A stretch of DNA of 42,701 bases from Verrucomicrobiota bacterium (GCA_050015895.1 JBEKAN010000001.1:1-42701); one strand, 5' to 3'. Shown: positions 3,558 to 42,662, counted from the first letter of the stretch. Made by a program: numbers and translations. Notes: generated by a model not told the origin, from the letters alone.

Positions 3558-6500
3558 TCACGGTTGGATCAGGACGCGATAGAAGCGACCCGAATAGGCG
3601 GCGGCCAGGGGGTCGTCAAAAAGCAGGGCGCCGGAGAACGGAGTGTTGGTTTGCAGGGAGGTCCAATCCACCAAGTTTGTGGACCCCTGGATGAGGGCCG
3701 AGGTGGCGCTTGGACCGCTGAAGGAGAATTGGAAGTGACCATTGGCGAGCAGGGTCGGGCTGGCGAGGAGCGTGGCGCGCACCACGCTCAAAGTCACCGC
3801 CGTGGCGCCGTAGGTTGTCTCCCAGGCCAAATTGCCCGGCAGGGGGGGAAGTTGCTGGGAGGCAAATTGGCCGGTCTCCGACCCGTAGGTGAGGATGGCG
3901 AAGGATTGGCCGTTGGTGGGGATGAAAGAGTTGGTCAAAACGACGGACAGAATTCCCCCCAGCGTGGCGGAACCGGCGAAGGTCTCCAGGCTGAACTGGG
4001 CGCCGGGATTCGGGCCGCCCAGGGCCAGGTTGAGCCGCGGGGAACCGGACAAAGTGTACCCGGCGTTGACGGCCAGAGTGCCGGTTTGCAAATCCACCGT
4101 CCCGAGATTGTTGAAGTTGACACCTCCATTGGCGGAGTCGAAGACCGTCGCGCCCGTCGTGATTTGTTTTCGGAACGTGCCGTTGTTGATGAAAGCCGGC
4201 TGCCCGTAGTAGCCGGCTCCGACGCCGTTGTCATAGAAAAAGCCGCTGTTCTGGATGACAAAGGTGGTGTTGTTGTTGATCGCGCTTCCACAGGAAGCGA
4301 CGATATTGCCGCCGTTCCAATAAGCCGCGCTGTTGTTCGTGAGGCTGGCGAACTGTAGGGTTTTGTCCGCCGAACCGGTCAAGTTGAAGGTGAGGTTCGC
4401 TTGCACGCCGAGGGCCGCCGCAATGACGCCGCCGGTCCAGTTGAAAGTTCCGGTTCCGCCAAAGGTTCCGGTTCCATTGACGGTTCCCCCGGCGTCGAGT
4501 TCGAAAGCGCCGCCATTGTTGAAAACCACGTTGCCGCCCAGAGACAGGCTGCCCGCGGTGAGAAGCCGGATCAGCCCGGGGCCATTGAAGCTGATGAGGC
4601 CGGGGCCGAAGAGATGAGCGCCTCCGTTGAAATCAATCCGCGACCCGGCGGCGGCGGTGAAGGCCGCAGTGGTCAAGGCCGCAGTGGCATCGCCGCCGCC
4701 GCCCCCCAGCGCCAGGAAACCGCTCTGGACACTGACCGTGCCCTGATTATTGAAGGCCACGCCGCCATTGTCCGGCGGGAACAGGGTGGTGTTGGCGCTG
4801 TTGGTCTTCACAAAGATGCCGTTGTTGACAAACACCGGTTGGCCGTAATAGCCGGCTTCGACGCCGTTGTTGGTAAAGGACGAGTCGTTCTGGACGGTGA
4901 AGGCGCCGTCGTTTTGGAAAATGCTGCCATAGCTGCAAACCACCGCTCCGGCCCCGGTCCAAAGGCCGTGGGCGGCGCTGTCCAGCGCGCCGAGAGTGAG
5001 GGTCTTCGGGCCGTCGCCGGTCACGTTGAAATTGAGGTTCGTTTGCAGGCTGAGGACCGCCGAAATGACGCCGCCGGACCAGTTGAAAGCTCCAGAGCCG
5101 CCAAAGGCCCCGGTTCCATTGAGGGTGCCAGCCGCCAGCTCGACCGTCGCTCCGAGTTGGATCATATTGGTGCCGTTGATCGTGAGGGTCCCCGCGTCCA
5201 CGCGGGTTTCGCCCGGGCCGGCAAAGACGGCGCCTCCGTTGACGTTGAACGCACCCTGCGAACTCAAAACACCGTTTTCGACGTCAATGGTTCCATTCTG
5301 GTTGAAGGTCCACCCTCCTTCGTCGGGGGCGACAATGGTGACGCCGTTGGAATTGGTTTTTTGGAGCCAGCCGTTGTTGACGAAGACCGGAAGGGAGTAG
5401 TAGCCGGCTTCGAGGCCGTTGTCATAGAAAAAGCCGCTGCTCTGGATGACAAAGTTGGCGTTGTTGTTGATCGCGCTTCCGTAGGAAGCGACGATATTGC
5501 CCCCGTTCCAATAAGCCGCGCCGTTGTTCGTGAGGCTGGCGAGGAAGAGGGTTTTGTCCGCCGAACCAGTCAAGTTGAAGGTGATGTTCGTCTGCAAACT
5601 GAGGGCCGCCGAAATGACGCCGCCGGTCCAGTTGAAAGTTCCGGTTCCGCCAAAGGTTCCGGTTCCAATCAGGTTTCCCCCGGCGTCCAGCTCGAAAGCG
5701 CCGCCATTGGTCAAGTTGACGACCCCGTTGCCGCCCCCAAAGACGCCGCCCAGATCAAGGGTTCCTGCTGTAAGAAGCCGGATCAGCCCGGGGCCATTGA
5801 ACTTGACAAGGCCGGGGCCGAAGAAGTGATCGCCCGCGGTCAGATCAATCTCCGACCCGGCGGCGACGGTGAAGGCCGCGGTGGTCGAGGTGGCATCGCT
5901 GCCGCCGCCCCCCAGCGCCAGGAAACCGCTCTGGACACAGACGGCGCCCTGATTGTTGAAGGCCACGCCGCCATTGTCCGGCGGGAACAGGGTGGTGTTG
6001 GCGCTGTTGGTCTTCACAAAGATGCCAGTATTGACAAACACCGGTTGGCCGTAGTAGCCGGCTTCGACGCCGTTGTTGGTAAAGGACGAGTCGTTCTGGA
6101 CGGTGAAGGCGCCGTCGTTCTGGAAAAGGCTGCCATAGCTGCAAACCACCGGGCCGGCCCCGGTCCAAAGGCCGTGGCCGGCGCTGTCCAGCGAGCCGAG
6201 AGTGAGGGTCTTCGGGCCGTCGCCGGTCACGTTGAAGTTGAGGTTCGTTTGCAGGCTGAGGACCGCCGAAATGACGCCGCCGGACCAGTTGAAAGCTCCA
6301 GACCCGCCAAAGGTCCCGGTTCCATTGACGGTGCCAGCCGTCAGTTCGACCGTCGCTCCGAGTTGGATCATATTGGTGCCGTTGATCGTGACGACTCCCG
6401 CGTCCACGCGCGTTTCGCCCGGGCCGGCAAAGAGGGCGCCCCCGTTGACATTGAACGCGCTCTGCGAACTGAAAGCGCCGTTTTCGACATCAATGGTTCC

Positions 6501-9479
6501 ATTCTGGTTGAAGATCCACCCTCCTTCGTCGGGGGCGACAATGAGGTCCCCATCGGAATTGGTTTTTTGGAGCCAGCCGTTGTTGACGAAGACCGGAAGG
6601 GCGTAGTAGCCGGCTTCGAGGCCGTTGTCATAGAGAAAGCCGCTGCTCTGGATGACAAAGGTGGCGTTGTTGTAGATCGCGCTTCCATAGGAAGCGAGGA
6701 TATTGCCCCCGTTCCAATAAACCGCGCCGTTGTTCGTGAGGCTGGCCAGGTAGAGGGTTTTGTCCGCCGAACCGCTGAGGTTAAGCGTCGCGCCGGCGGA
6801 CACGTTGTAAATGCCGACCAATGTCCCGCCCGACCAATTGAAGACCCCGCTGGAGGGAAGGCTGATGGCTCCGCCATTCAGCAGGCCGCCGGAGAAATTG
6901 AGATTGGTGATGAGCATGCCCGCTGTGGTAAGCGCGCCGCCGGACATGTCCAGCCGATAGAGCTGGAGGCTCCCCAATTGGCTATTGTCAGGAGAGTAGC
7001 CAGAGTTGATGATCACCTGCGCATTCGACGTGGGGACACTACCGACGTCCCAGTTGGCCGGTGTGCTCCAGTAATTATTCCAGTTGTCGGGATCGGGGTC
7101 CAGGAAGCTGCCGGCGGTGTAAACATAGACCGGATGATAATTCACCGAAAAACTCGTGATCAGGTCCGAGCTTTCGGGCGGGCATTCATTGTTGGCGACG
7201 ATGACCTCCACCTGATAGCCGGCATTCGGCAGGTCGCTCCCGCTGGGCATCGGGTTGGTCACCAGCCACGCCGCAGTTGTCGCGTTGTAACTCACCCCCA
7301 ACGAGGTGGAAACGGAGCTCCAGCTCGTGCCAGTCCAGTAGAGCACTCCGTCGCCGCTGGTGAACTGATTCAGATAAACCGTCACCGAAGCAACGCCCGT
7401 TTCCAGGTCCAAAGCCGAACCGGACAGAGGCAACAAAGCATTATTGGTAATCACGTCGCGGGAGTGGACCGTGTCCAGCGTGACCACCGGCGTCGTCGTG
7501 TCGGGAGCGGAGCGCGTGACCAGGATTTGGTTGGTAAACAGGTTGCCGGCGACATCCTCCGGGACGACCCACAGGAGGTAGGGGCCGGAACGAGTTTGGC
7601 AGCGGGTGGGCAGAGTCACACCGGTCGCCGGCGCCCAGGTTCCGCCCGAGTTGCTGGCGTCCAGATAGACGGAGGGGTCGTTTCCGTTGGAAATCCACGA
7701 AGAACCGTTCCAGAAAAGATTGTTGACGCCGCTGGGATCATACTGTTGAATCACAAACACCACAAAGGCGCTCGATTCGTTGACGGAGCCGCCGATCTGC
7801 GAAAAGTCGAAAACCACCTCGTTGTTGACCAGCGGGTTGAAATTCGCGAAAAGAGGATTGAACGTGACAGGATCGGAGGCGATGCCATTGGCGACGACCT
7901 GCATGGAAAAGTTATCCAGATGGTTGTAGATGTTCGTGGGCAGCATCGCCTCGGTGGTGACGACCCGGTCGCCCGTCATCACGCTCGTGCTGCTCCAACC
8001 GTAAGTGGTCCCGTAATAGACTTCGCCGGCGGCATTGGTCAACCGGACCAGCGGGTAGTTGCTGTCCATCTGGGCGTCGTCGCCGTAAGCCGCGCCCTGG
8101 GAGATGCCATTGAACCCCGTGCCGATCAGATGCACCGTGCCGTCCGGGTTCCACGAAATATTCTGAAGGTCCGGCTTGCCGGCCGCCAGGGGCGAGGCAT
8201 CGGGCTTGTAAACGAAAAGTTGGCCGCCCCCCAGGCTGTTGGTGCTGCCGTCGGTGAACAGGACGGTGCCGTCCGGCAGGTCGAGCATTCGGTTCGAGTA
8301 AGTCGTTCCCGCGTCGGCAAAGGTGCCGTACGGAGCAAGAATTTCCGTGAACGCGCCGACGGGGCCCGCGCTGTAGTCGTATTCAAAAAAGTAGGTGGGC
8401 GGAATGAAGACGTTGGTCGTTCTGGGCGGGCCCACACCAAAGTACGGAGTGCGAGAAAAAGCACAGAGGATTTTGCCGTTGACCATCATCGCCGCCGGGG
8501 CGTCGGGCGCACCCAGACCGGCCGGAATGTTCGGGCCGGCTGTCCAGGCGCCGGCATTGGTGGTGCCGCTGGGGACATAAATGGCGGTGTTGGAGGTGCT
8601 GCCCAGGTAAAAAGCGTTGCCGTTGGGCAGGAGAAAGGCCGCCCCGCTTTCACCGCCGACCGAATCATAGATGTTCACGGGAACATTGGCGTCGGCGATC
8701 CACTGGTTCAAGGCCGGGATGTAGCGCTCGGAAGTGTTGGTAAAGGAGTCAATTACAAGGATGCTGTCGTCGGGCAGCTTGAGCAGGCTCGCCTCGTCCA
8801 AGTCCACGCCACGATGAAGCGTCGGCCCGAGGGACATGGTGTCCGAGGAGGGATTGAAGAGAACGGTGCTGCCGTAGTAGTAGGGGACAACCGGGGTCAC
8901 CAACACGTCGCCGTTGGACAAAATCACGCTGCCGGAGTCCATGAAGCCCGTGGTGTTTGCGCCCTGCGCGTCAATCGAGTTGGTGGTTGTGAGCAGCCCG
9001 AAGGGCACGGGGATGATGGTCCAGGAATCGTGGAAGGGATCATAAACCTCGGCGTTGGTCGTGCCGTTGCCATACTCGGCGCCGGCGATGAAAACGCGGC
9101 CATCCTGAAGCACATCGGAGGAATAATAAAGCCGGGAGTAGTTCATCGAGGCGCGAGAGGACCAGGTGCCATTGGTGTAACCGCCCGTGCTGTCGGGCGT
9201 GAGCCGATACCAAATGGTGGTCGAGAGATTGCCGCCGCCTTGAGCCATCACGGTGCCGTCGGAGAGAAGCAGCATGGTGCCGATTCCATCCGGAGCCGGC
9301 TGCTGCACATTTAACCAGGTGCCTTCGGCGTTGGCGGGCGGCGGCAACAAGAAACCGCAGAGGGCCAGCGCGGCTCCAATGCGCCGCCAGCCTGGCAGCA
9401 ACCGCGAGCGGATTTTTGGTGTTGTCAACGGAGCAGGGACGCGCGGAGCACCGCGGTCACGGGTTGAGGGACGGATCAT
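3558..9479 (-). CDS. Giant secreted surface protein: beta-propeller (kelch/galactose-oxidase-like blades) + Ig-like domains + repetitive beta-helix region + C-terminal beta-sandwich tail
   Basis: The in-frame ATG at 9479 gives MIRPSTRD...RRIGAALALCGFLLPPPANAEG, a signal-like N-terminus. The ORF-track start at 9806 would run into the helicase gene. There are repeated hydrophobic-DG-x-V blades (LSDGTVMAQGG, QDGRVFIAGAEYG, LPDGTVLFTDG). Five FNW(S/T)GG-led units follow. The tail ends GHFQFSFSG...STNLVDWTSL...GRFYRVLIQP. Confidence 0.85.
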   Translation of the reverse strand: MIRPSTRDRGAPRVPAPLTTPKIRSRLLPGWRRIGAALALCGFLLPPPANAEGTWLNVQQPAPDGIGTMLLLSDGTVMAQGGGNLSTTIWYRLTPDSTGGYTNGTWSSRASMNYSRLYYSSDVLQDGRVFIAGAEYGNGTTNAEVYDPFHDSWTIIPVPFGLLTTTNSIDAQGANTTGFMDSGSVILSNGDVLVTPVVPYYYGSTVLFNPSSDTMSLGPTLHRGVDLDEASLLKLPDDSILVIDSFTNTSERYIPALNQWIADANVPVNIYDSVGGESGAAFLLPNGNAFYLGSTSNTAIYVPSGTTNAGAWTAGPNIPAGLGAPDAPAAMMVNGKILCAFSRTPYFGVGPPRTTNVFIPPTYFFEYDYSAGPVGAFTEILAPYGTFADAGTTYSNRMLDLPDGTVLFTDGSTNSLGGGQLFVYKPDASPLAAGKPDLQNISWNPDGTVHLIGTGFNGISQGAAYGDDAQMDSNYPLVRLTNAAGEVYYGTTYGWSSTSVMTGDRVVTTEAMLPTNIYNHLDNFSMQVVANGIASDPVTFNPLFANFNPLVNNEVVFDFSQIGGSVNESSAFVVFVIQQYDPSGVNNLFWNGSSWISNGNDPSVYLDASNSGGTWAPATGVTLPTRCQTRSGPYLLWVVPEDVAGNLFTNQILVTRSAPDTTTPVVTLDTVHSRDVITNNALLPLSGSALDLETGVASVTVYLNQFTSGDGVLYWTGTSWSSVSTSLGVSYNATTAAWLVTNPMPSGSDLPNAGYQVEVIVANNECPPESSDLITSFSVNYHPVYVYTAGSFLDPDPDNWNNYWSTPANWDVGSVPTSNAQVIINSGYSPDNSQLGSLQLYRLDMSGGALTTAGMLITNLNFSGGLLNGGAISLPSSGVFNWSGGTLVGIYNVSAGATLNLSGSADKTLYLASLTNNGAVYWNGGNILASYGSAIYNNATFVIQSSGFLYDNGLEAGYYALPVFVNNGWLQKTNSDGDLIVAPDEGGWIFNQNGTIDVENGAFSSQSAFNVNGGALFAGPGETRVDAGVVTINGTNMIQLGATVELTAGTVNGTGTFGGSGAFNWSGGVISAVLSLQTNLNFNVTGDGPKTLTLGSLDSAGHGLWTGAGPVVCSYGSLFQNDGAFTVQNDSSFTNNGVEAGYYGQPVFVNTGIFVKTNSANTTLFPPDNGGVAFNNQGAVCVQSGFLALGGGGSDATSTTAAFTVAAGSEIDLTAGDHFFGPGLVKFNGPGLIRLLTAGTLDLGGVFGGGNGVVNLTNGGAFELDAGGNLIGTGTFGGTGTFNWTGGVISAALSLQTNITFNLTGSADKTLFLASLTNNGAAYWNGGNIVASYGSAINNNANFVIQSSGFFYDNGLEAGYYSLPVFVNNGWLQKTNSNGVTIVAPDEGGWTFNQNGTIDVENGVLSSQGAFNVNGGAVFAGPGETRVDAGTLTINGTNMIQLGATVELAAGTLNGTGAFGGSGAFNWSGGVISAVLSLQTNLNFNVTGDGPKTLTLGALDSAAHGLWTGAGAVVCSYGSIFQNDGAFTVQNDSSFTNNGVEAGYYGQPVFVNNGIFVKTNSANTTLFPPDNGGVAFNNQGTVSVQSGFLALGGGGGDATAALTTAAFTAAAGSRIDFNGGAHLFGPGLISFNGPGLIRLLTAGSLSLGGNVVFNNGGAFELDAGGTVNGTGTFGGTGTFNWTGGVIAAALGVQANLTFNLTGSADKTLQFASLTNNSAAYWNGGNIVASCGSAINNNTTFVIQNSGFFYDNGVGAGYYGQPAFINNGTFRKQITTGATVFDSANGGVNFNNLGTVDLQTGTLAVNAGYTLSGSPRLNLALGGPNPGAQFSLETFAGSATLGGILSVVLTNSFIPTNGQSFAILTYGSETGQFASQQLPPLPGNLAWETTYGATAVTLSVVRATLLASPTLLANGHFQFSFSGPSATSALIQGSTNLVDWTSLQTNTPFSGALLFDDPLAAAYSGRFYRVLIQP
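4250..6900. repeat. Intragenic tandem repeat, period about 1191-1206 bp (unit types A-B-A-B-A), roughly 90-95 percent identical by eye
   Basis: FNW(S/T)GG codons recur at about 6838, 6287, 5633, 5081 and 4440. The shadow ORFs 4996-5400 and 6202-6606, and 4333-4617 and 5524-5829, translate to near-identical peptides. Confidence 0.85.
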
Positions 9480-9619: not shown

Positions 9620-12106
9620 TTAATGGCGGCGCAGGATAAGGCGGTGGTCCACGCGCTTGGTTTGATGATATTCGAGGGGGGGGAGTTGGGTGAGGGTGGG
9701 GGAGACGGTTTCGTGCAAGATGTCCCGCGCCAAATCGCGCAGCTTTTTCCAGCGCGCCCAATCCAGGTCGGGCGCGTGGGCGATGCGGCGCAATAAACTG
9801 CGCCATTCGATGATGATGCGGTCAATGTCGCCCGCGCCCAGAAGTTCGGTGACCCATTGGTGCTTGCTCAAGGGGTCGCGGTGAACGCCGGCCACGACCG
9901 GCCCGGCGCCAGCGCCGTATTTGGGCGGAATCCCATTTTCCAGATAACCGGGGATGGTTTGGGCGCTGTAGGTTTTTTGACAGATTTGCGCCAGACGGCC
10001 CGACCAACGACTGTCCTCGCCGCAAAAGCGGTAGGTGGCGTCCAGGTTGGCGAGGTCGTACACCAATTCTTCGACCGGATAGGTGTCATCCTCCAGCGCG
10101 GCGGCCAGGGCCAGGCCGTCGCCCTGGGAAAAAAAGCCGGCGACGCGCCCGCGCCGCGTTGGCGCGCCGGAGGCCTCGATGAGGCCAAGACGCCGCCAGA
10201 GCAGGGCGACGCCGGTGGCGGTGGGCAGCTCGCGGCAAACGGGAACCAGAGGACATTGGGCGCAGTCCGGCGGCAGGACATCGCGCTCGGGCGGTTTCCA
10301 CAAGGCCACACCGTGGCTATCCACCGGCACACGCAAGGTCAGGCCGGCGATGCTCAGGCAGGCCATGATGCGGGAGGATTCGTCCATCATGCGGACCAAG
10401 GGCATGTTTTGGGCGGCGAGTTTTTGCTCCAGCAAGGGAACGATTTTTTCGGTCCAGACCGCCAGAGGCGCCTGGCGTCCGTTCCAGGAGATCAGGCGGC
10501 GGACCCATTTGTTGAGGAGAACGCGGTGGTCGTTGAGGCGGTCGGCCACGGTGATGGCGCGGCCATAGGTTTTGCCGCGAGCGTCCTCGCCGAGGAGACA
10601 TAATTTGCCCGGGCCGACTTTTTCGAGCGCGGCGGCGTCGCCCAGGACGCTGTGAAAACGCGGCGCGGGATCGCCGGGAGCGGCGGGAGGCATGACCAGG
10701 ATTTCGCGCAGCGGAATGTCGCGTGGCGGCGGGCAATCTTCCCATTCGCCGCGGCTGTTTTGGATTTGACGGACCAGGCGGCGGACATGACGGGCGCGTT
10801 CGGCGTCCATTTTGAGGCCGCACGGGGTCTGCGGATTTTTCATCGCCTGCTCGACACCCAAGGCGACTGGTTTGGTGGTGAAAAGACGCTCCTGCACGCG
10901 CACGGCCTGGAGGAAAGGATCGCCGCCTTGATCGGCGGCGGCGGCCATCAGACCCAGAAGCGCGTTCCAATCCACCAGCCCGGCGCGGGCGAGATGGACG
11001 GGGCGGGCGTCCAGCAGGCGGAGTTGGTTGGCGGTGATGAGGATGAAGCCGGTTTCGTCCAAGCCGCGGCGTCCGGCGCGGCCGAACATTTGCAGGATTT
11101 CATCGGCGCGAAGGAGCTGCTCCTGCTGGTCGCGTTTGTAGGATTCGGCGGCGAGGGCGACGCTGCGCAGGGAGAAGTTGATTCCCGCCGCCAAACCCAT
11201 CGTGGCGACGACGACGCGCAACTGGCCGGCCTTGGCGAGGGGTTCGACGACGCCGGCGCGGGCGGCGTAGCTCAACCCGCTGTGATGAAAAGCGACGCGG
11301 GATTTCAACATTTTGGCGAGGGATGCGCCGGCAAGGGACTTTTGCTCGGCGGTCAGGCTCAGGGGATTTGGCACTGGAAGGACGCGGGCCAGTTCGGAGG
11401 CCATGGATTCGGCGGCCTGGCGGCGCGGGGCGAAGATGAGAATAGGGCCGAGGTCTTCGGCCAAAGCTTTAGCCACCAGGCCCGGCCAATAGCCCTTGAG
11501 GTCCGCGGGAAGATGGTAACTGAGATTGTTGGGGTGGACCTCCTCCAATGGAACGGGGCGCTCCTCGTGGCGGATGAGGACGGCTTGACGACCGAGGCGC
11601 TCGAGCCATTTGACGACTTGCTGGGGATTGGCGACGCTGCCGCTGAGGAGCAGAAGTTGCGTGCGGGGCGGCGCCAGCGCGAGGGCCAGCTCGTAATTCA
11701 AGCCGCGGTCCTCGTCGCCGAGCATTTGGTATTCGTCCACGACGAGCAGGGCCGGGCCGTCGCCGCGGATGAGGCGGTGCTTCTGGGTCTCCAGGGTGGC
11801 GACGAGGACCGGGGCGGAGAGGTTCTCGCTCAGATCGCCGGTGGCGATGCCGACATCCCAGCCGCGCGCGCGCCATTCGGCCAGTTTGTCATTGGCCAGA
11901 GCGCGGGTGGGAACGGTGTAAACGGCCTGGCCGCGGTTTTTTCCCTGATTGGACCAAAGCTCGAAAATCAAGGTCTTGCCCGCGCCGGTCGGGGCCTGGA
12001 CGACAACGTCCCTGCCGTCGCGCAAGGCGGTGACGGCCTGCTGCTGCCAGAGGTCGGGAAGGAGGACGCGCTGGAGGGAGGGGAGATTTTCCAACTTTTG
12101 GGCCAT
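9620..12106 (-). CDS. Ski2-like DEAD/DEAH-box superfamily 2 helicase with a long C-terminal extension
   Basis: ATG at 12106 (MAQKLENL); the track start at 12115 is GTG. Walker A is QAPTGAGKT. Motif II is VVDEYQML. SGS and FHHSGL...VVVATMGLAAGINF are helicase C-domain motifs. About 400 aa C-terminal to the core are unassigned. Confidence 0.85.
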   Translation of the reverse strand: MAQKLENLPSLQRVLLPDLWQQQAVTALRDGRDVVVQAPTGAGKTLIFELWSNQGKNRGQAVYTVPTRALANDKLAEWRARGWDVGIATGDLSENLSAPVLVATLETQKHRLIRGDGPALLVVDEYQMLGDEDRGLNYELALALAPPRTQLLLLSGSVANPQQVVKWLERLGRQAVLIRHEERPVPLEEVHPNNLSYHLPADLKGYWPGLVAKALAEDLGPILIFAPRRQAAESMASELARVLPVPNPLSLTAEQKSLAGASLAKMLKSRVAFHHSGLSYAARAGVVEPLAKAGQLRVVVATMGLAAGINFSLRSVALAAESYKRDQQEQLLRADEILQMFGRAGRRGLDETGFILITANQLRLLDARPVHLARAGLVDWNALLGLMAAAADQGGDPFLQAVRVQERLFTTKPVALGVEQAMKNPQTPCGLKMDAERARHVRRLVRQIQNSRGEWEDCPPPRDIPLREILVMPPAAPGDPAPRFHSVLGDAAALEKVGPGKLCLLGEDARGKTYGRAITVADRLNDHRVLLNKWVRRLISWNGRQAPLAVWTEKIVPLLEQKLAAQNMPLVRMMDESSRIMACLSIAGLTLRVPVDSHGVALWKPPERDVLPPDCAQCPLVPVCRELPTATGVALLWRRLGLIEASGAPTRRGRVAGFFSQGDGLALAAALEDDTYPVEELVYDLANLDATYRFCGEDSRWSGRLAQICQKTYSAQTIPGYLENGIPPKYGAGAGPVVAGVHRDPLSKHQWVTELLGAGDIDRIIIEWRSLLRRIAHAPDLDWARWKKLRDLARDILHETVSPTLTQLPPLEYHQTKRVDHRLILRRH

Positions 12107-12161
12107 TGAGAGCACAAGGAAAGAATAGCCGCAATTTGGTTTTGGGAAACGGGGAATTGTT

Positions 12162-12575
12162 TTATTTTAGGGCCGCCCATGCGTACACCACGGGCAGGTA
12201 GGCGAAGACGATGTTTGTGGCGTGGTAGCCAAGACGCCAGAAGTTGTTTTTCAAGTACGGCCGCACATCGAAGACAAAAGAGGCGACTATCAAGCGCAGC
12301 GTCCAAAACACGGCGAGGAACGCGCACCAGGCGCGAGCCAGACCGCCACCCGCCGCCAGCGTTCCCGCGAAGAGGATCGTGATCAAACCAAAGCCCGCGA
12401 GGCACAGGCCGATGAAGGCATAGTAAACCCAATAAAGCCGGCGGATGAACGGAGGCAAAACGGCGATATGCGCGCGCAGGTTGACCGCCCGGGGCATCAG
12501 CGCCCCCGCGCACATCAGGCCCAAATGGAGCACACCGGCGAATTGGAGAAGCAGAGTCAAGTTAATTGTTTTCAT
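12162..12575 (-). CDS. Small polytopic membrane protein (about 4 TM), function unknown
   Basis: The internal ATG at 12575 (MKTINLTLLLQFAGVLHLGL...) lies 9 nt after the upstream stop. The longer track ORF (to 12794) overlaps the upstream gene. The protein is hydrophobic throughout. Confidence 0.6.
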   Translation of the reverse strand: MKTINLTLLLQFAGVLHLGLMCAGALMPRAVNLRAHIAVLPPFIRRLYWVYYAFIGLCLAGFGLITILFAGTLAAGGGLARAWCAFLAVFWTLRLIVASFVFDVRPYLKNNFWRLGYHATNIVFAYLPVVYAWAALK

Positions 12576-12583
12576 GTTTCCTT

Positions 12584-13915
12584 TCAGATTGCGCCGACGG
12601 CCGAGAGCATCGGCAGAATGACGTTGTTGACGAACCACGGATGAAAAAGCCAGAACGCCGGGCCGGCGGTGACCAGCACTGTGAACAACCAGCCGCGCGC
12701 GCCACGGCCCAAGCCAATGCTCCGGCCCAGGCGCGCGCGCTCCGCCGCCACCCCCAGACCTTGCGCCAGAAAGTAGGCGGTGGGCAAACCGCACCCTCCG
12801 CGCGCCGGCAGGGAAATCACCAATTCATGCACCAAGCCCGACAAACCAAAAACCAGCAAAGTGGCGACGACCGGGCCGGCCGACCGGCAAAGCGGGCGGA
12901 ATGTGAAACGAAACACCAGTTCGTTAAATGCGGTGTTCCACCGCCTGCCCCAAAACTCCGCAAGCGAACCGGCCAAAAGCGGGTTTTGCATCAGGGGCCT
13001 GGCTGTCACTCCGGCCCGCCGCCAGACAATGGACAAAACGTGGAAGAAGCCAAAATGCAGAATGAAAATCAAACCGGTCATCCCAATCCATGCGCCCAGA
13101 ATCGGATGAGCCGGGAACGCGGTTCGGGTGATTCCCCAAAGCAACCCAACGCCGAAGAGGGTTTTCACAATGGCCATCGCCCATTCAACGCCACGCGGTT
13201 TTGCGGGGACGGTTTTTTCGTCGAGAAATTTCTCCGCGTCCATTCCCGGCCAGGCCAGAAGATAGCCGAGCGCGCGCGGCAAATTCGATGACAGCCCGCG
13301 CCTGGTCGCCTGACGGAAAGTCAGCCATTTGCATCCGGTGTAAATCGCGAATGCCATCGCCCACATGAAAAGCCAGGCGGCGAGCCGGCTCCTGAAAAGC
13401 AGAGCCGCCAAAGGCAGAAGGAGCAGCGGCAGAAAATCGAAAGAGCGAAGGCTTTCCTTTTCATCTGTCAAGTTGCGAGTTGCGCAAACGCCGCCGGCGC
13501 AATTGCGCCGACGCGCGACCCAGCGATAACCCCGCCGCGAAAGTGTTCTCACCCCCGGCACCCGGACCAATTGAGGGAGAGGCCAGGCCCACCAGTAGAG
13601 ACGGCTGATTTCAACCAGGGCGTCCGCCCCGCCGAAATTCCTTCCGTCCGGCAACAGGAGCCGCAGTTCCGACAATAACTGCGAATCGGCCAATCCGAGT
13701 TTTGCGCCGACCCAAGGCGTTTGCAGCGGCAGAAGCACGAGACGCCGGCTGGCGAGCAAATGATCAAAGCGTCGGGCGAGATCAGCGCAGAAACGACAGT
13801 CCGCGTCATAGAGCACCCATCCTTGGATTTTCGCCTGGTCTCTATTTCCAGCAGGCAACAAATCCCGTTTCGCGGGTTTCAATATGCCAGAAATATCCTG
13901 GGTGATGCGGCTCAT
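12584..13915 (-). CDS. Fusion protein: N-terminal DCC-family (DUF393) thiol-disulfide oxidoreductase-like domain + C-terminal MBOAT_2/wax-synthase-like membrane acyltransferase domain
   Basis: ATG at 13915. The N-terminus has YDADCRFCADLARRF, the CxxC motif of the DCC family. The C-terminal half has LAEFWGRRWNTAFNELV and GLVHELVISLP, which are MBOAT_2-type motifs with the conserved His, plus multiple TM helices. Confidence 0.8.
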   Translation of the reverse strand: MSRITQDISGILKPAKRDLLPAGNRDQAKIQGWVLYDADCRFCADLARRFDHLLASRRLVLLPLQTPWVGAKLGLADSQLLSELRLLLPDGRNFGGADALVEISRLYWWAWPLPQLVRVPGVRTLSRRGYRWVARRRNCAGGVCATRNLTDEKESLRSFDFLPLLLLPLAALLFRSRLAAWLFMWAMAFAIYTGCKWLTFRQATRRGLSSNLPRALGYLLAWPGMDAEKFLDEKTVPAKPRGVEWAMAIVKTLFGVGLLWGITRTAFPAHPILGAWIGMTGLIFILHFGFFHVLSIVWRRAGVTARPLMQNPLLAGSLAEFWGRRWNTAFNELVFRFTFRPLCRSAGPVVATLLVFGLSGLVHELVISLPARGGCGLPTAYFLAQGLGVAAERARLGRSIGLGRGARGWLFTVLVTAGPAFWLFHPWFVNNVILPMLSAVGAI

Positions 13916-19686: not shown

Positions 19687-19790
19687 GATGAGGGAGCTTT
19701 AACGATAAAGATTGGAATTCTCGATGTCTCACTTTGCGCGGCCGAAATGGCTCCTCCGCATTCGCAGTGGCTACGGCGGATGGGGAAGCT

Positions 19791-19908
19791 ATGGTGGACG
19801 TGGTGGACGTGGTGGACGTGGTGGACGTGGTGGACGTGATGGACGCGGTGGACGGGATGGACGCGGTGGACGGGATGGACGCGGTGGACGGGATGGACGT
19901 AGTGGACA
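19791..19908. repeat. Minisatellite: GTGGTGGAC x5 (9 bp), then about 3 copies of an 18-bp derivative (GTGATGGACGCGGTGGAC-like)
   Basis: Read directly. The repeat length is a multiple of 3, so it is open in several frames on both strands. It is flanked by similar 21-mers: gctacggcggatggggaagct (19771-19791) and gccacggcggacgggaaagcg (about 19924-19944). Confidence 0.9.
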
Positions 19909-20353
19909 ACATCAACTTCGGTCCCGCCACGGCGGACGGGAAAGCGACGGAGGACGGGGACGCTCCGGCGGGACAGCACGGCGGGACAAGACGGTGCGAC
20001 AAGTCCGTCTTTCCAATTGACCGGCCCCATTCCTTTCATGCGAAACACAGTATCACAATTGCTAAGGATCGTCAATTGGATAATGTAAATATTTCAGCAA
20101 CTCCGGCGGGATGGGGTGTCCTTCATGGCGGAACCCCTGGTCCACTCGCGGCCGCGAGAGGGAGGCTGTCGGCGGAGGGAGAGCAGCGCAAGCTGAGACT
20201 TGGAGATCAGCCATCGAACCAGAGTTACGCAAAATAGAACCAGAAACAGGCAGGCAAGAAGGAGCACATAATACACGGTGCGCATAGACAATGGCACTCT
20301 AGGCCGTCGGCCAAGGCTGCGCTATGGGGTGTTCTCCCCATAAGCGGCACCCT

Positions 20354-37458: not shown

Positions 37459-37730
37459 TTAGTACATTGTGTGGAGGCCTGATCTTCGCGTCAGGAACTC
37501 CTGGCCTCCGGGCTGCGGGTAGGCGCGCTGGTTTTTCCGGGTGTCCGGCAAGCTCACGCCAGTGCCACCGATCACCGTGACGCGCAAACCGTGCAAGAGT
37601 TGGCCCGCCCGGTCGGCCCGCGCGGGCAGGGCGCAGCGGAGCCGGGGCAAGAGGTCCCAGGACAGACGTTGTCGGGCCTGGCGCAGGTTGCTGAAGATGA
37701 GGACGAAAACCGCCTGAAAACAAAACTGTG
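37459..37730 (-). pseudogene. Remnant of an IS4-family (DDE) transposase gene, truncated at both ends
   Basis: The minus-strand frame reads ...LLHGLRVTVIGGTGVSLPDTRKNQRAYPQPGGQE.... This resembles the IS4 N-terminal catalytic block (W.G.R..A.DGT...LPDT.EN...Y/F). The expected catalytic D of DGT is G here. There is no start codon and the downstream reading frame is lost. Confidence 0.45.
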
Positions 37731-37766
37731 CATAGCCGCCGACTTGTATTATCCTCCACCTTAGCG

Positions 37767-40700
37767 ATGACTAGCCGCACATCACCAAAACCGACGAAGA
37801 AAGCGCTTGATCTCTATGATGAGTCCGTCGCCGAGTTTCGTCAGCGAGGGGTTCAGCATGAAGGCGCTGTCCGCTCAGCGTTCCAAGTGCTCCTTGACGG
37901 TTGCGCGCGGCAATGCGGGTGGAAACTCGTTCCAGAGTATCCGGTCCTTCGGCGGGGCCGACGCCCCTTGCGCGTTGATGGCGCTCTTGTCGATCAATTT
38001 AATCTTTCACATGGCCTGTGGGAGGCTAAGGACAGTGCAGACGATCTGGAGAAAGAGATCAAAGCTAAGTTCGCCCTCGGGTACCCGCAGTGGAATATTC
38101 TTTTTCAGTCGCCCGACCGTGCCGTCCTCTATCAAAACGGCAAAAGAGTGCTCGACTCCTGCCTCGTGCATCCGCAGCAGCTCACCGACACTCTATGCGC
38201 ATTTCTGAGCTATCAAGAGCCCGCCCTCGACGAGTGGGAAAAGGCCAGCATCGAGTTTAAGGAACGCATCGCCGAGCATGGGCGGGCACTGAAGGAAATC
38301 ATCGAGGTCGAGCGCACCCAGAACAGCGCCTTCCAGATCGCCTTCACCGGGTTCGTCACCCTCTGCCACGCCTCGTTGAACCCGGCCCTCTCGGAAGCCG
38401 CTGTGGAGGAGATGCTCATCCAGCACATCCTCACCTGGCGCATATTTCGGAACATTTTCAAGGCCGGCGACTTCATGCAGAAGAACGTCATCGCTGTGGA
38501 GATCGAGAAAGTCGTTAACGCGCTGACTTCCCGCAGTTTCTCACGCGAGGATTTCCTCGAAAAGCTCGACCACTTCTACGTCGCCCTTGAGCACGCTGCG
38601 GAGACGATATCTGACTTCTCGGAAAAGCAGAAGTTCCTCAACACAGTCTATGAGCGGTTCTTTCAGGGCTTTGCCGTCACGCAGGCCGATGCGCTCGGCA
38701 TCGTCTACACGCCGCAGCCTATCGTCGATTTCATGGTCGCGAGCGTCGATTGCTTGCTCAAGAAACAATTCGAAAAGAAGAGTGGCATCGGTGCTCACGA
38801 CGTGCATGTTCTCGACGGCTTCGTCGGTACAGGAAATTTCATCGTCAACCTCATGCGAGCGCTCCCACCCTCCACGTTAAAGCACAAGTATGCCTGCGAA
38901 TTGCACTGCAACGAGGTCATGCTGCTGCCGTACTACGTCGCTTCGATGAACATCGAGCACGAGTATTTCGGCGCCACGGGGGAATACCGGCCCTTTGAGG
39001 GCATTTGCCTCGTGGACACCTTCCAAATCGCGGAGGAACACACCGGCGGCGGCGTGCAAGGGGGCTTTGAGTTCTTCTCCAAAGCCAACACCGACCGCAT
39101 CAAACGCCAGCGGGCGACACCCATCTTCGTCTGCATCGGCAACCCACCCTACAATGCGGGCCAACTCAACGAAAACGACAACAACAAGAACCGCAAATAC
39201 CCGGAACTCGATGCCCGTGTCTCCGCCACCTACGGAGGCGCGTCGCGTGCCACGCTCCTGCGTAAACTCGCCGATCCCTACGTCAAAGCCATCCGCTGGG
39301 CAACCGACCGCATCGGCGACGCTGGCATCGTGGCCTTCGTGAACAACAACAGTTACGTCGATGAAATCTCTTTTGACGGAATGCGCCAGCATCTCGCGCG
39401 CGATTTCGATCTCATCTACGTGCTCGATCTCGGCGGCAATGTGCGCAAGAACCCGAAGCTCTCCGGAACGACGCACAACGTCTTCGGCATCCAAGTTGGC
39501 GTGAGCATCAATTTCTTCATCCGTCTGCCGGGCAAGGCGAAGCAGACACCTCGGCACGCAAAGATCCTGTATCATTCGGTGGCGGGTGATTGGCGCAAAG
39601 AGCAGAAGTATGATTTGCTCGAGCGGGCCAAAACCATCGCCGACATCCAGTGGCGGGAACTAACGCCCGACGCGAAAAACACGTGGCTGACCGGCGAGGC
39701 CGACGCGGAGTTCGACGGGTTCGTTCCGATCGGGTCGAAGGAGGCGAAGGCCGATGCTACCTCGAAACAGCCAGTGATTTTCCAAAGCTACTCACTTGGC
39801 GTTTCGACTAACCGTGACAGCATCGTCTATGATTTCGATCGTGACCGACTCGCCCATCGGGTGGAGGGGTTCTGCAATGACTACAACGCCGAACTGCTTA
39901 GGTGGATAAACGAAGGTTCTCCGAAGGAGTTAGATTCGTTCCTTAGCACCGACCGCATTAAATGGAGCCGAGATCTTAAGCTCAAGTTAAGTCGCCGGAC
40001 CGAGGCTGCATTCTCAGCCACTCAAATCCGGCAGGCCCTTTACCGACCTTTCACGATCAAGTGGCTGTACTGCGACCCAGTTGTCGTCGATCGCATCGGT
40101 CCAGCGCAGGCATTCTTCCCCGCGGACGACAACCTCGCGATCTGTCTGCCAGGGCCCGGAAACCGACAGCAGTTTGGCTGTGTTGTTACGAGGCTGTTAC
40201 CATCCCTGGATCTGGCATTTGAAAAATGCCAGTGCTTCCCTTTCTACGCCCATGACGAAGGCGGTAGGAACAGAGAAGAGAACATCCCGCGTGCAACGCT
40301 GGTGCGTTTCCAAAGCCACTACGGCGACGAACGCATCACCAAATGGGACATCTTCCATTACGTCTATGCATTGTTGCACCATCCCGACTATCGCAAGCGT
40401 TTCGGCGCGAATCTTAAGCGCGAACTGCCGCGCCTCCCGCTGGCGCCTCGGTTCCACGCTTTTGCCAAGGCGGGCAAGGAGCTGGCCGACCTGCACCTCG
40501 GCTACGAAGGTGCCGCCGAGTATCCGCTCCAGCGCATCGAGCACCGTGGCGTTCCCTTTAGGCTGCGGGTCGAGAAGATGAAGCTGACACCCGACAAGCG
40601 TGACCTAATTTACAACGAATCGCTTACGCTCGCCGGCATTCCGCCGGCGGCCTTCGACTACAAGCTCGGCAACCGCTCGGCGCTGGAATGGATCATCGAC

Positions 40701-40979
40701 CAATATCAGGTCTCCGCCGACCCGCGCAGCGGCATCCAGAGCGATCCAAATCGGCCGGATGATGAAGGCTACATCGTCCGCCTTATCGGTCAGGTCGTCA
40801 CCGTAAGCCTTGAGAGCCTCAAGATTATCCATGGTCTGCCGACAGATTTCGGCGCGGAAGGGGAGGAAACAACGCATGACAATCAACTCCAAACATGGCG
40901 CCTGAATCAGCGCTTACCGAACTCAGAATTCGCGCGGCAGCAGCGGGAGCAGCTCCGGAAGCAGGTCGAATCTCGCTAG
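37767..40979 (+). CDS. Single-polypeptide restriction-modification enzyme (Type IIG / Type ISP-like without helicase): PD-(D/E)XK nuclease-like N-terminus + gamma-class N6-adenine methyltransferase + C-terminal target-recognition region
   Basis: ATG at 37767 (MTSRTSPK); another ATG 13 codons upstream, at 37728, is also possible. VDG-X14-WEAKD lies at nt 37977-38030. AdoMet motif I is VLDGFVGTGNF. The catalytic motif GNPPYN is at 39141-39152. The C-terminal FHYVYALLHHPDYRKRFGANLKRELPRLPL resembles the Type ISP/IIG C-terminal domain. Confidence 0.85.
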   Translation: MTSRTSPKPTKKALDLYDESVAEFRQRGVQHEGAVRSAFQVLLDGCARQCGWKLVPEYPVLRRGRRPLRVDGALVDQFNLSHGLWEAKDSADDLEKEIKAKFALGYPQWNILFQSPDRAVLYQNGKRVLDSCLVHPQQLTDTLCAFLSYQEPALDEWEKASIEFKERIAEHGRALKEIIEVERTQNSAFQIAFTGFVTLCHASLNPALSEAAVEEMLIQHILTWRIFRNIFKAGDFMQKNVIAVEIEKVVNALTSRSFSREDFLEKLDHFYVALEHAAETISDFSEKQKFLNTVYERFFQGFAVTQADALGIVYTPQPIVDFMVASVDCLLKKQFEKKSGIGAHDVHVLDGFVGTGNFIVNLMRALPPSTLKHKYACELHCNEVMLLPYYVASMNIEHEYFGATGEYRPFEGICLVDTFQIAEEHTGGGVQGGFEFFSKANTDRIKRQRATPIFVCIGNPPYNAGQLNENDNNKNRKYPELDARVSATYGGASRATLLRKLADPYVKAIRWATDRIGDAGIVAFVNNNSYVDEISFDGMRQHLARDFDLIYVLDLGGNVRKNPKLSGTTHNVFGIQVGVSINFFIRLPGKAKQTPRHAKILYHSVAGDWRKEQKYDLLERAKTIADIQWRELTPDAKNTWLTGEADAEFDGFVPIGSKEAKADATSKQPVIFQSYSLGVSTNRDSIVYDFDRDRLAHRVEGFCNDYNAELLRWINEGSPKELDSFLSTDRIKWSRDLKLKLSRRTEAAFSATQIRQALYRPFTIKWLYCDPVVVDRIGPAQAFFPADDNLAICLPGPGNRQQFGCVVTRLLPSLDLAFEKCQCFPFYAHDEGGRNREENIPRATLVRFQSHYGDERITKWDIFHYVYALLHHPDYRKRFGANLKRELPRLPLAPRFHAFAKAGKELADLHLGYEGAAEYPLQRIEHRGVPFRLRVEKMKLTPDKRDLIYNESLTLAGIPPAAFDYKLGNRSALEWIIDQYQVSADPRSGIQSDPNRPDDEGYIVRLIGQVVTVSLESLKIIHGLPTDFGAEGEETTHDNQLQTWRLNQRLPNSEFARQQREQLRKQVESR

Positions 40980-41641
40980 CAGAGCGACTCGCGCTGGAAC
41001 GGGATGTCCTCGTAGCATGGGCGCGAGAGAAAAACGTCGTGATCGCGGCGGAATCCTGCCTGAGCCGCGTCGAGGGAACCCACGGTGAACATCACGTCTA
41101 TTTCAATATCGAGCGGGACAGGTATTTCAAAATCACTCACGGAGCAGACACAGCTAACGCTGGTTTTGCGCTTACGGTAGATACCGAGTTTCGCATCGGA
41201 AAAAAAACGCAACGCTATATCGCTGTTCCTTGGCTGCGAGAAGCAACGCCTTTTGAATACCTGGCGCGTCTGCAACTGTTCAATTTGACATTCCGGGATG
41301 ACGTTGAAATTGAAGGCGTCATTGTCGAGCCCGGGAGGCAAGCGATTGTCGTCTCGCAGCGGTTCATTTCAGGCGGCGCGGCAACCGCTGCCAAAGTAGC
41401 TGCGTTCATGTTTCAGCGTGGTTTCGTCGCCCTCCCCGGTGTAACTGTCGGGCGAGGAAACTCCGCGTCCTATGTGCATCCGGAAGAGGCGATCGCCGTT
41501 TTTGATACTCACGGGCAAAACTTCCTGGTTTCTGGGGAGGGGATTATCCCGATCGATGCGCTGATCCTGCGCGCAAGCGAAGATCTGCTCGCCTATCTAG
41601 CGATGTCTCCCGCTGAACGAGCGGCGGAGACAGGATGTTAG
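40895..41641 (+). CDS. Hypothetical protein with a protein-kinase-like catalytic signature (DxHxxN ... ID)
   Basis: The only ATG in frame is at 40895, 85 nt inside the upstream gene. 248 aa of protein-like composition. Motifs are GEHHVYF...YFKITH (candidate N-lobe Lys), FDTHGQN (41504-41521) and IPID (41552-41557). Family assignment is unverified. Confidence 0.6.
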   Translation: MAPESALTELRIRAAAAGAAPEAGRISLAERLALERDVLVAWAREKNVVIAAESCLSRVEGTHGEHHVYFNIERDRYFKITHGADTANAGFALTVDTEFRIGKKTQRYIAVPWLREATPFEYLARLQLFNLTFRDDVEIEGVIVEPGRQAIVVSQRFISGGAATAAKVAAFMFQRGFVALPGVTVGRGNSASYVHPEEAIAVFDTHGQNFLVSGEGIIPIDALILRASEDLLAYLAMSPAERAAETGC

Positions 41642-42012
41642 GGTCATGTTAGGGTCAGGCCTAGGATCTTGGTGTCCGTTCATCTGGTCCTCCTCGCGCT
41701 CTTGTCCAAAAACTCCCGTTTGACATGGTTTGTTGATATTGGCGCAAGCGGGCGCGTCTCATGGTCCGAGGCCCCCGGCTGGCGTCGGTGGAGAAATCCA
41801 AGCAAACTCCTCGCGCAAAGTTCTCAAAACCCCAGCCCGACAGGCAACAGGCCGTCTCGCATTTTGTTCTCATATCAATTCCCGGCCCAGTCTCAAAAAC
41901 TCCTCCGCAACCGCGCAATGAACAACTGGGACATGGTTTTTATCCTCCAATTCGCCGAGGATTGCAACACTATTTTTCCAGAATCAACAGTCCTGAGGTT
42001 TGTGTCCTGAGG

Positions 42013-42104
42013 TTGCGACCTGGGGCCATTCGTGTTCATTGGCGAAATTCGCGGATCACCCATCCATTGCTGTTTCTGTGGGTCTTCATCGGAAGCGCTT
42101 CATT
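42013..42104. repeat. Copy A of a 92-bp dispersed/direct repeat
   Basis: It aligns by eye to 42337-42428 with about 10 mismatches. The shared core is attggcgaaattcgcggatcacccatccattgc.gtttctgtgggt.ttcatcggaag.gcttcatt. Confidence 0.85.
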
Positions 42105-42336
42105 ATCAAGGAGTTGTGAATCCGTGAACCGGCTTTCAGTCTTCCAATTTGAAGCCGGGGTCGAGCCGCTGTCGGTCCTCGCTATTGACACTTTTTGAAA
42201 ACGTCCTCGCTTTATCTGTGTTCATCTGAGTCAATCTGTGGCCGAAGCAGTCAGCGTGAATTCAGAAATCCGGGGGCCGCTTTTGCGACTTTGCGCTTCC
42301 CGCGACTTTGCGATTATTCAGTCGCCGTGACCGCCT

Positions 42337-42428
42337 TTGCGACCCGGATCAATTCGTGTGAATTGGCGAAATTCGCGGATCACCCATCCATTGCCGTTTC
42401 TGTGGGTTTTCATCGGAAGTGCTTCATT
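42337..42428. repeat. Copy B of the 92-bp repeat (324 bp downstream of copy A)
   Basis: See copy A. Both copies are preceded by TTGCGAC motifs and followed about 210 nt later by a ...CATC(C)TG..AATCTGTGG motif. Confidence 0.85.
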
Positions 42429-42662
42429 CTTAGTGAGTTACAGCATCAGGAGGTGGTTTTGCGCGTCTTGCTCCTTTCGCCCTGCCCGCGTCTGCGAGAA
42501 AAAGTCCCTCTGTCCGCCCCCTTTGAGTTCCGCGGCAATCCGTGTCATCCTGCAATCTGTGGTTAAAAGCTTGGATAGCCCTGAATATGGGCGTCCAATC
42601 AAATCATAAGCTTCTCAATCATAATGCTTATCTTTCCAACCTCCTTGCGGAATTTCTTTCCC

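Follow-up and report, generated by a model that had tools for sequence, protein, structure and literature searches.

A mobile cassette of Verrucomicrobiota carries a DrdV-type restriction-modification enzyme gene with a conserved, overlapping gene for a predicted minimal kinase

In a stretch of 42,701 nucleotides (nt) from a Verrucomicrobiota bacterium (GCA_050015895.1, JBEKAN010000001.1:1-42701; the whole stretch is called the window below), two overlapping genes, A and B, appear from sequence comparison to form a horizontally mobile restriction-modification cassette of about 3.9 kb. Gene A encodes a DrdV-type Type IIL enzyme of 1070 amino acids (aa), and gene B, which starts inside the 3' end of A, a predicted minimal protein kinase of the Kinase-PolyVal family. 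By homology A is an ordinary representative of an enzyme family already known; what is new is the conserved overlapping kinase partner and an enzyme tail that goes with that partner. The coordinates of both genes and of their parts are collected in Table 1.

Table 1. Features of the cassette, numbered from the first letter of the window
Feature	Position	Strand	Basis or remark
Mobile two-gene cassette	37716..41658 (3,943 bp)	.	Homology block common to otherwise unrelated genomic context
Gene A, DrdV-type Type IIL single-chain restriction-modification enzyme, predicted, 1070 aa	37767..40979	+	phmmer against PDB; PADLOC
N-terminal PD-ExK nuclease domain	37767..38261	+	Gap-free alignment to DrdV
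Helical coupler/connector domain, aa 174-283	38286..38615	+	Pfam PF22240 ISP_coupler, 9.5e-16
N6-adenine methyltransferase core, aa 289-479	38631..39203	+	Pfam N6_Mtase, 1e-7
Target-recognition domain, aa 671-997	39777..40757	+	Pfam Type_ISP_C, 5.9e-94
Clade-specific C-terminal tail of A, aa 1027-1070	40845..40976	+	DFGAEGEETTHDNQLQTW...; holds the start of gene B
A/B overlap, 85 nt	40895..40979	+	Frame of B is that of A shifted by -1
Gene B, predicted standalone minimal protein kinase (Kinase-PolyVal), 248 aa	40895..41641	+	Pfam PF18762, invariant residues, AF2 model, fold matches

Results

Genes A and B travel and diverge together

Context look-ups and scans of genomes and metagenomes yielded 51 loci. 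When A and B were used as tblastn queries, an A homologue was found directly upstream and on the same strand at every locus that had a B homologue at least 47% identical to that of the window and enough upstream DNA; one seeming exception is L033 (48%), whose available upstream DNA, 509 nt long, holds no A. Linkage was seen in about 20 non-identical loci (L001, L003, L005, L014-16, L020-31, L034, L040-42 and L047), in each of which the start codon of B lies inside the tail of A. Flanking DNA was available for 11 of these and the flanks are mutually unrelated; they include housekeeping genes (L001, L014-16, L041, L042 and L047), the middle of a nif cluster (L040), a phage-like region (L003) and a conjugative element (L005). 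The recurrent neighbourhood of the 248-aa protein and a methyltransferase, which an earlier note on this DNA had proposed as a check, is thus borne out. Identities of A and of B to the window are correlated across loci (r = 0.84 over 19 loci), with B diverging the faster. A and B transfer as a unit and co-diverge. The named sources of the loci seeded with B, linked and orphan alike, are Verrucomicrobiota (Chthoniobacter, Chthoniobacterales, Udaeobacter and others).

The boundaries of the unit were set by blastn comparison with L001, in which positions 37716-41658 of the window match 4705-8643 of the other locus at 92.9% identity while the flanks do not align. Homology begins 51 nt 5' of the ATG of A and ends 17 nt 3' of the stop codon of B, so that only these two genes fall within it. 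The 3' end of the cassette is also 100% identical to two metagenome contigs from JGI. The lower GC content that the earlier note had suspected in this region is real (0.55-0.59 against 0.60-0.68 in the rest of the window), and GC content at third codon positions is 0.72 in A and 0.55 in B, compared with 0.80-0.87 in neighbouring genes.

Two of the linked loci have neighbours that can be described further. In L040 the cassette (3867-7789) sits amid a nitrogenase (nif) cluster, with Oxidored_nitro genes on both sides and a Radical_SAM/Nitro_FeMo-Co gene downstream. In L003, from a Chthoniobacter metagenome-assembled genome (MAG), a 735-aa protein with Prok-E2_A, ThiF (E1-like) and Prok-JAB domains is encoded at 10436-12643, about 2 kb 3' of the cassette, and a GpA-type terminase comes after it; the region might belong to a phage or encode a ubiquitin-like conjugation defence.

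Gene A encodes a complete DrdV-type enzyme

Gene A opens with ATG, and an alternative upstream GTG at 37728 is likewise open. Its best sequence match in the PDB is DrdV of Deinococcus wulumuqiensis (7LO5/7LVV, 1029 aa), with a phmmer E-value of 2e-205 over aa 27-1026 of A and 20-1026 of DrdV. Among the PADLOC models, REase_MTase_IIG (PDLC03621) is matched over its full length (4.5e-180), whereas of the longer ISP-type models A covers the C-terminal halves only, the ISP-length model being matched from its position 732 on. The PD-(D/E)XK motif, S-adenosylmethionine (AdoMet) motif I, NPPY and ISP/IIG-like C-terminal region that the earlier note had read in the open reading frame (ORF) are all present and are backed by homology to DrdV and by Pfam. 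According to the DrdV paper the nuclease active site of that enzyme consists of E25, D64, E79, K81 and K94, and the K81 mutant is dead; in a gap-free alignment all five are conserved in A, as E32, D71, E86, K88 and K101, and the motif reads D71...E86-A-K88 (codons at 37977-37979, 38022-38024 and 38028-38030). The AdoMet motif is LDGFVGTGNF, and NPPY (aa 459-462; 39141-39152) aligns with N448-Y451 of DrdV. Because the alignment spans DrdV with all catalytic residues kept, A is, on homology, a complete DrdV-type Type IIL enzyme and is predicted to be active. The earlier description of a self-contained enzyme holds, and DrdV-type Type IIL is a more precise name for it than Type ISP/IIG-like. By homology, A is predicted to recognize an asymmetric site, to methylate one adenine and to cleave when several enzyme molecules on unmodified sites assemble. 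Enzymes of the DrdV type methylate one strand only, which creates a self/non-self problem after replication. The family is large, with 7,898 clusters at E-values of 1e-50 or below among the candidates scored.

Within the target-recognition domain lies a hypervariable segment (about 39820-40204) at which nucleotide alignments to relatives break, even to the 90%-identical relative L021, although both sides align. This is the pattern expected when specificity diversifies and suggests that the recognition specificity has been swapped or is diversifying fast.

Gene B encodes a predicted minimal kinase

The product of gene B matches Pfam PF18762 with 38.0 bits (E = 2.1e-9; the gathering score is 27), and a precomputed match to the same family was present in 33 of the 40 close homologues listed. 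The kinase signature which the earlier note had picked out by eye is located in this match: YFKITH carries K79 (41129-41131), FDTHGQN carries D204 (41504-41506) and N209 (41519-41521), and IPID carries D221 (41555-41557). In 20 close homologues no variation is seen at E65, K79 (the ATP-binding Lys), E121 (the alphaC Glu), Q155, D204 (the catalytic Asp), H206, N209 and D221 (the metal-binding Asp); among 20 distant standalone relatives (25-47% identity) the fixed positions are W42, E65, H66, K79, Q155, D204, N209 and D221, and H206 varies. The first and last residues of the proposed DxHxxN signature are therefore fixed, while its histidine is not a constant of the wider family. A confident AlphaFold2 (AF2) model of B (pLDDT 90.7, pTM 0.89) ends shortly past the Mg loop, and together with the family description it gives a protein made of the N-lobe with the catalytic and Mg loops, lacking the substrate-binding C-lobe.

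A kinase fold, for which the earlier note had asked, was returned by structural as well as by sequence comparison. The best structural matches of B in BFVD are phage proteins, headed by a 'large polyvalent protein' (E = 3.5e-12, TMq 0.59) and including a large 'Type I restriction enzyme' protein and a 'PolyVal Ser/Thr/Tyr kinase'. Protein kinases (RET, PknB, MK2, JAK2 and others) nearly fill the top 50 Foldseek matches in the PDB, weakly (E at least 0.02, TM about 0.2), and no aminoglycoside, choline or lipid kinase occurs among those 50. A profile of B found nothing meaningful among PDB sequences, NCBIfam gave no match, and in PADLOC v2.0.0 neither B nor its L047 homologue matched any family, for B at E-values up to 1. 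According to the description of Kinase-PolyVal by Iyer et al. (2017; PMC5512222), the family has lost the C-terminal kinase subdomain and kept the catalytic residues, has as hallmarks a Glu before strand 2 and a Gln in the last N-lobe strand (E65 and Q155 of B), and is predicted to phosphorylate proteins in the manner of the T7 kinase, the retained core being judged closer to protein kinases; standalone forms are mentioned there for Bacteroidetes. On these grounds we predict that B is a catalytically intact minimal protein kinase, probably with a protein substrate.

An exhaustive profile search with B returned 1,205 representatives (E at or below 1e-3), some of them standalone (about 230-260 aa) and others polyvalent proteins (1,300-6,000 aa). 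Since the N-terminal helices of the profile were matched in both kinds, ATG 40895 is taken as the real start of B. The shorter forms proposed by many gene callers (174-209 aa) were rejected, as the N-terminal 60 residues are conserved in the family and fold as confident helices. Pfam found no informative partner domains on the nearest multidomain relatives, and close relatives were absent from the plasmid and phage collections searched by tblastn and from a scan of IMG/VR. We know of no Kinase-PolyVal member with assayed protein phosphotransferase activity.

The tail of A accompanies the kinase

The 85-nt overlap between the two genes noted earlier is exact. It falls in a C-terminal extension that DrdV lacks and that about 33 of the best 120 clusters of A homologues possess, the others stopping a few residues past 'LP'. 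Two kinds of tail were seen, LPxDFGAEGE...TWRLNQ... and a second subtype, ...RKELREWRMSQTHW..., and a Ser/Thr at aa 1035 is conserved with acidic residues after it. In the part of the tail that lies 5' of the ATG of B (LPxDFGAEGE) the variable sites are mostly third codon positions when read in the frame of A, which points to selection on the tail peptide and indicates that the tail is under purifying selection at the protein level. The presence of a tail predicted that of a kinase in every locus inspected: the tail-bearing homologues P0080, P0092, P0095 and P0098 have one, whereas the tail-less P0108 and P0137 and the plasmid homologues H1-H3 do not; the tail-less loci checked were L048, L050 and L044-46. 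Homologues of A from other phyla, at most 58% identical, have neither kinase nor tail.

The ATG of B is kept at the same site in relatives, within the T/E-W codons of the tail, and overlaps there range from 85 to 193 nt. The first 16 nt of the overlap, ATGGCGCCTGAATCAG, are almost invariant. Codon-position counts over its first 48 nt did not separate the two frames because this stretch is itself almost invariant. As the start codon of B lies inside the clade-specific tail of A, the two genes are probably co-transcribed from one transcript. Termination-reinitiation could couple the translation of B to a putative upstream ORF of 9 codons, read in the third frame (ATG at 40876, MTINSKHGA, stop TGA at 40903-40905), which has a Shine-Dalgarno-like GGAGG (40862-40866) 9 nt 5' of it and a stop codon 6 nt past the ATG of B; a start in this frame is found in many related loci and is missing in some (L003). 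Fusion of A and B by frameshifting was considered, B being in the -1 frame, and rejected: there is no X_XXY_YYZ heptamer or homopolymer in 40845-40979, and the ATG and N-terminus of B are conserved, also in orphans and polyvalent proteins.

Discussion

Relation to known systems

A and DrdV, which like MmeI and BpuSI is a single-chain Type IIL/IIG enzyme, align from end to end and share the order of nuclease, helical connector, N6-adenine methyltransferase and target-recognition domain, with identical nuclease and NPPY residues; a hypervariable recognition segment is likewise expected for the DrdV/MmeI-type family. What distinguishes A is the additional conserved tail of 44 aa and the overlapping kinase gene, the DrdV paper reporting no partner. 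Relatives of A are named 'type ISP restriction/modification enzyme' at NCBI, and its coupler, methyltransferase and target-recognition regions (aa 187-1026) do match LlaGI and LlaBIII, which are of Type ISP, at 1e-137 to 1e-147. However, these matches start at residues 579 and 743 of the two proteins, from the coupler on; A is shorter (1070 aa against 1406-1578 aa), Pfam found no helicase or ATPase in it, and it lacks a RecA-like SF2 ATPase/translocase between nuclease and coupler. Because it has no ATPase, A is not assigned to Type ISP.

The pairing of an N6-adenine methyltransferase with a Ser/Thr/Tyr-type kinase in one methylation-based defence locus recalls Pgl/BREX type 2. B, at 248 aa, nevertheless lacks the NERD nuclease, pseudokinase and winged helix-turn-helix (wHTH) modules, and A has its own nuclease and fits Type IIG models best, not PglX. 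PglY, PglZ, BrxD and BrxHI are absent from the locus, the PglZ, PglY, PglW and PglX set is not there and the mobile unit consists of two genes. For MADS, the methylation-associated defence system with its multi-gene locus (mad1-mad8), the similarity of A to mad2 is weak (1.6e-17 against 1e-180 to 1e-216 for IIG models), with no other mad match for B or the neighbours. Since PADLOC gave no match for B or for the ten other largest ORFs of the window, both systems were excluded, which agrees with the argument of the earlier note that this is not Pgl/BREX type 2.

By hidden Markov model and by fold B belongs with the polyvalent kinases (PF18762) of phages and conjugative elements, with which it has in common a missing C-lobe, a Glu ahead of strand 2, a Gln in the final strand of the N-lobe and, on the description of Iyer et al. 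(2017), a phyletic centre in Verrucomicrobia. It differs from them as a standalone, chromosomal protein of 248 aa fixed 3' of a restriction enzyme, a context that the account of the family in that paper does not mention. Embedding in a large phage or conjugative polyvalent protein does not apply to B, and standalone forms are common in the family. The precedent cited by Iyer et al. (2017) in their account of polyvalent kinases is the T7 protein kinase (gp0.7/T7K). This promiscuous enzyme is directed by a DNA-binding domain, disarms defences by phosphorylation and can decide their outcome. T7K is a small conflict-system kinase whose effect on defence depends on direction to DNA-associated proteins, and B may resemble it in this. 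Unlike T7K, which is phage-encoded and anti-defence and has a DNA-binding domain, B is of another kinase lineage and has no such domain of its own; targeting of B to DNA would have to come from A.

A second enzyme in or next to a restriction-modification system, serving as a back-up when restriction is challenged, is also the concept of EcoprrI-PrrC and of similar arrangements that embed an effector in a restriction locus; in EcoprrI-PrrC the anticodon nuclease PrrC is held latent by the Type I enzyme EcoprrI. In the cassette the partner is instead a kinase and the enzyme is of Type IIL, and the existence of orphan B homologues suggests that B is not toxic without A. We found no description of a Type IIL/IIG enzyme with a Kinase-PolyVal partner in a non-exhaustive search of the literature.

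One tail-less homologue of A has another kind of neighbour. On the Geminocystis plasmid pGM04 (L045) a SoFic defence gene (4425-5510; PADLOC 7e-112) lies 110 nt 3' of the DrdV-like enzyme gene. Fic was considered as an analogous protein-modifying partner and rejected, this gene being an independent neighbour in a small defence island.

A tentative role for the kinase

We tentatively propose that B is a co-expressed accessory effector tethered to A, which would add a phosphorylation output to restriction. The target-recognition domain of A would bind its asymmetric site, the gamma-class methyltransferase would mark host DNA by methylating one adenine, and the PD-ExK nuclease would cut once several enzyme molecules on unmodified sites had assembled. 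A and B would be made from one transcript and be coupled functionally and probably physically, the acidic, Ser/Thr-bearing tail of A being the likeliest docking or acceptor site. B would then phosphorylate proteins, either in the infected cell or sitting on DNA bound by A, as a second layer that backs up restriction, and would be dispensable for cleavage and methylation themselves. DrdV is active in vitro on its own, which is why the kinase is regarded as an add-on. A tethered effector is favoured because DrdV-type activity is kinase-free, because the relatives of B in phage and plasmid polyvalent proteins are predicted, in the family description of Iyer et al. (2017), to phosphorylate proteins of the opponent, and because B lacks a C-lobe while A has a selected, partner-specific tail. 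We infer the defence role of the kinase; the assignment of A to a family of restriction enzymes is not of this kind.

Several observations weigh against this proposal. No Shine-Dalgarno sequence was found at a normal distance from the ATG of B. The conserved tail of A would suit a regulator of A equally well, and as B has no PADLOC match there is no homology support from known defence kinases. B-like kinases with intact catalytic residues occur without an adjacent A (L007, 44%; L008, 40%; L033, 48%; L011-13 and L037, about 31%), and an A that is frameshifted, degraded or truncated stands beside an intact B in L009, L014 and L015, where the lesions could be real decay or assembly errors; in either case B can evidently persist without A.

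The main alternative, possible but in our view less likely, is that B is a post-translational regulator of A which phosphorylates, for example, Ser/Thr of the tail and so sets the balance between methylation and cleavage. With a single-chain enzyme it would take the part that controller (C) proteins play in two-gene Type II systems, at entry into an unmethylated host or after replication. A tail that is specific to the clade, whose peptide is under selection, in which acidic residues come after a conserved Ser/Thr and which is found where the kinase is present would be well explained in this way, as would the strict overlap and co-divergence; one-strand methylation poses just the problem after replication that such control might solve, and a mobile cassette repeatedly faces establishment in naive hosts. 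Yet most DrdV-like enzymes, 58%-identical ones included, do without a kinase, orphan B homologues persist without A and relatives in the family act within polyvalent proteins with no A-like partner. In a further reading, which we consider unlikely, A is a sequence-specific sensor and DNA anchor for B as a promiscuous minimal kinase, and phosphorylation of phage DNA-associated or host proteins on unmethylated foreign DNA leads to abortive infection. Were this so, immunity would be achieved partly by phosphorylation rather than cleavage and would work against phages able to prevent or escape the cutting of their DNA; the host would be using the strategy of the T7 kinase in mirror image.

B might instead be a selfish establishment or anti-defence factor, as has been proposed for polyvalent kinases, which travels with the restriction gene and phosphorylates host proteins, possibly those of competing defences, to the advantage of the cassette or of the element that carries it and not to stop phages. 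The family to which B belongs is typical of the polyvalent proteins of phages and conjugative elements, a conjugative element (L005) and a phage-like region (L003) are among the settings of the cassette, and the T7 kinase disarms defences by promiscuous phosphorylation, all of which would fit. We give this little credence: most cassettes are in plain chromosomal settings with no other mobile-element genes, close relatives were not found in IMG/VR or the phage and plasmid collections, and strict coupling to one enzyme clade with its special tail would be left unexplained. That B phosphorylates a small molecule, a nucleotide or a nucleic-acid end, as is the case for many folds resembling protein kinases, and alters for instance nucleotide pools or the DNA ends made by A, appears very unlikely. 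B does lack the C-lobe, with which classical kinases bind their peptide substrates, and the matches to protein-kinase folds in the PDB are weak; however, these matches are nearly all Ser/Thr/Tyr protein kinases, and the retained core was judged nearer to protein kinases in the account of the family (Iyer et al., 2017). Least credible by far is that A and B are mere neighbours in a defence island with no functional link. Restriction genes do often adjoin unrelated defence genes, as on the Geminocystis plasmid described above, but the start within the tail is kept in about 20 loci, the genes co-diverge, and the unit of transfer adds to the two genes no more than about 50 nt on the upstream side and 17 nt on the downstream side. 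On the comparative evidence the conservation data have effectively refuted mere adjacency already.

Type IIL/IIG enzymes are viewed as self-sufficient one-gene systems, and annotation tools would call this locus just 'RM type IIG'. The strictly conserved overlapping kinase and the partner-specific tail suggest a link between some restriction enzymes and protein phosphorylation, one that could control the decision to cut or methylate in enzymes that methylate one strand or could add a second immune output. Kinase-PolyVal, an uncharacterised family known so far from predictions on phage polyvalent proteins, gains a small two-gene context in which substrate and role could be worked out with simple genetics. 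Up to now the cassette has turned up within a narrow range, in soil Verrucomicrobiota and mainly in Chthoniobacterales, and its generality is limited to that extent.

Orphan kinases and flanking DNA

Among the orphans, L008 comes from a MAG labelled Akkermansia. Standalone Kinase-PolyVal genes about 31% identical to B occupy the same housekeeping site in L011 (5826-6368), L012 (6001-6543) and L037 (5001-5603), between pdhA-like and mnmG/gidA-like genes of Prosthecobacter and Verrucomicrobiaceae, and look like a domesticated orphan lineage. L039 holds a polyvalent-type ORF of 1,507 aa with a B-like region and no A. On a short metagenome contig (L038, 1436-1976) the N-terminus of an A homologue (aa 8-107) runs directly into aa 130-211 of a B homologue, in its C-terminal half, as if the cassette had lost an internal piece or the contig had been misassembled.

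Just outside the 5' boundary of the cassette in the window, a 63-aa ORF on the minus strand (37459-37650) is weakly similar to the N-terminal part of IS4-family transposases (tblastn E-values of 1e-4 to 3e-2, 50-56% identity across about 35 aa) and has no match in Pfam. It may be a decayed insertion sequence (IS), and the IS remnant proposed in the earlier note is thus weakly supported. The repeat-rich DNA proposed there amounts to one pair of direct repeats 3' of the cassette (103 nt; 42013-42115 and 42337-42439, 87% identical and 324 nt apart) in apparently non-coding DNA of lower GC content; a core of 31 nt is identical between the two copies and has no further occurrence in the window. The repeat has no Rfam or tRNA match, tRNA and Rfam scans of the cassette flanks found nothing, and a promoter and terminator scan gave no more sites than shuffled sequence. 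Far from the cassette, a tandem repeat at 19792-19907 (9-nt unit, 12.9 copies, 85% matches; also readable as a 36-nt unit in 3.2 copies) codes for a (V/M)D(V/A/G)-rich stretch within the ORF at 19734-20237.

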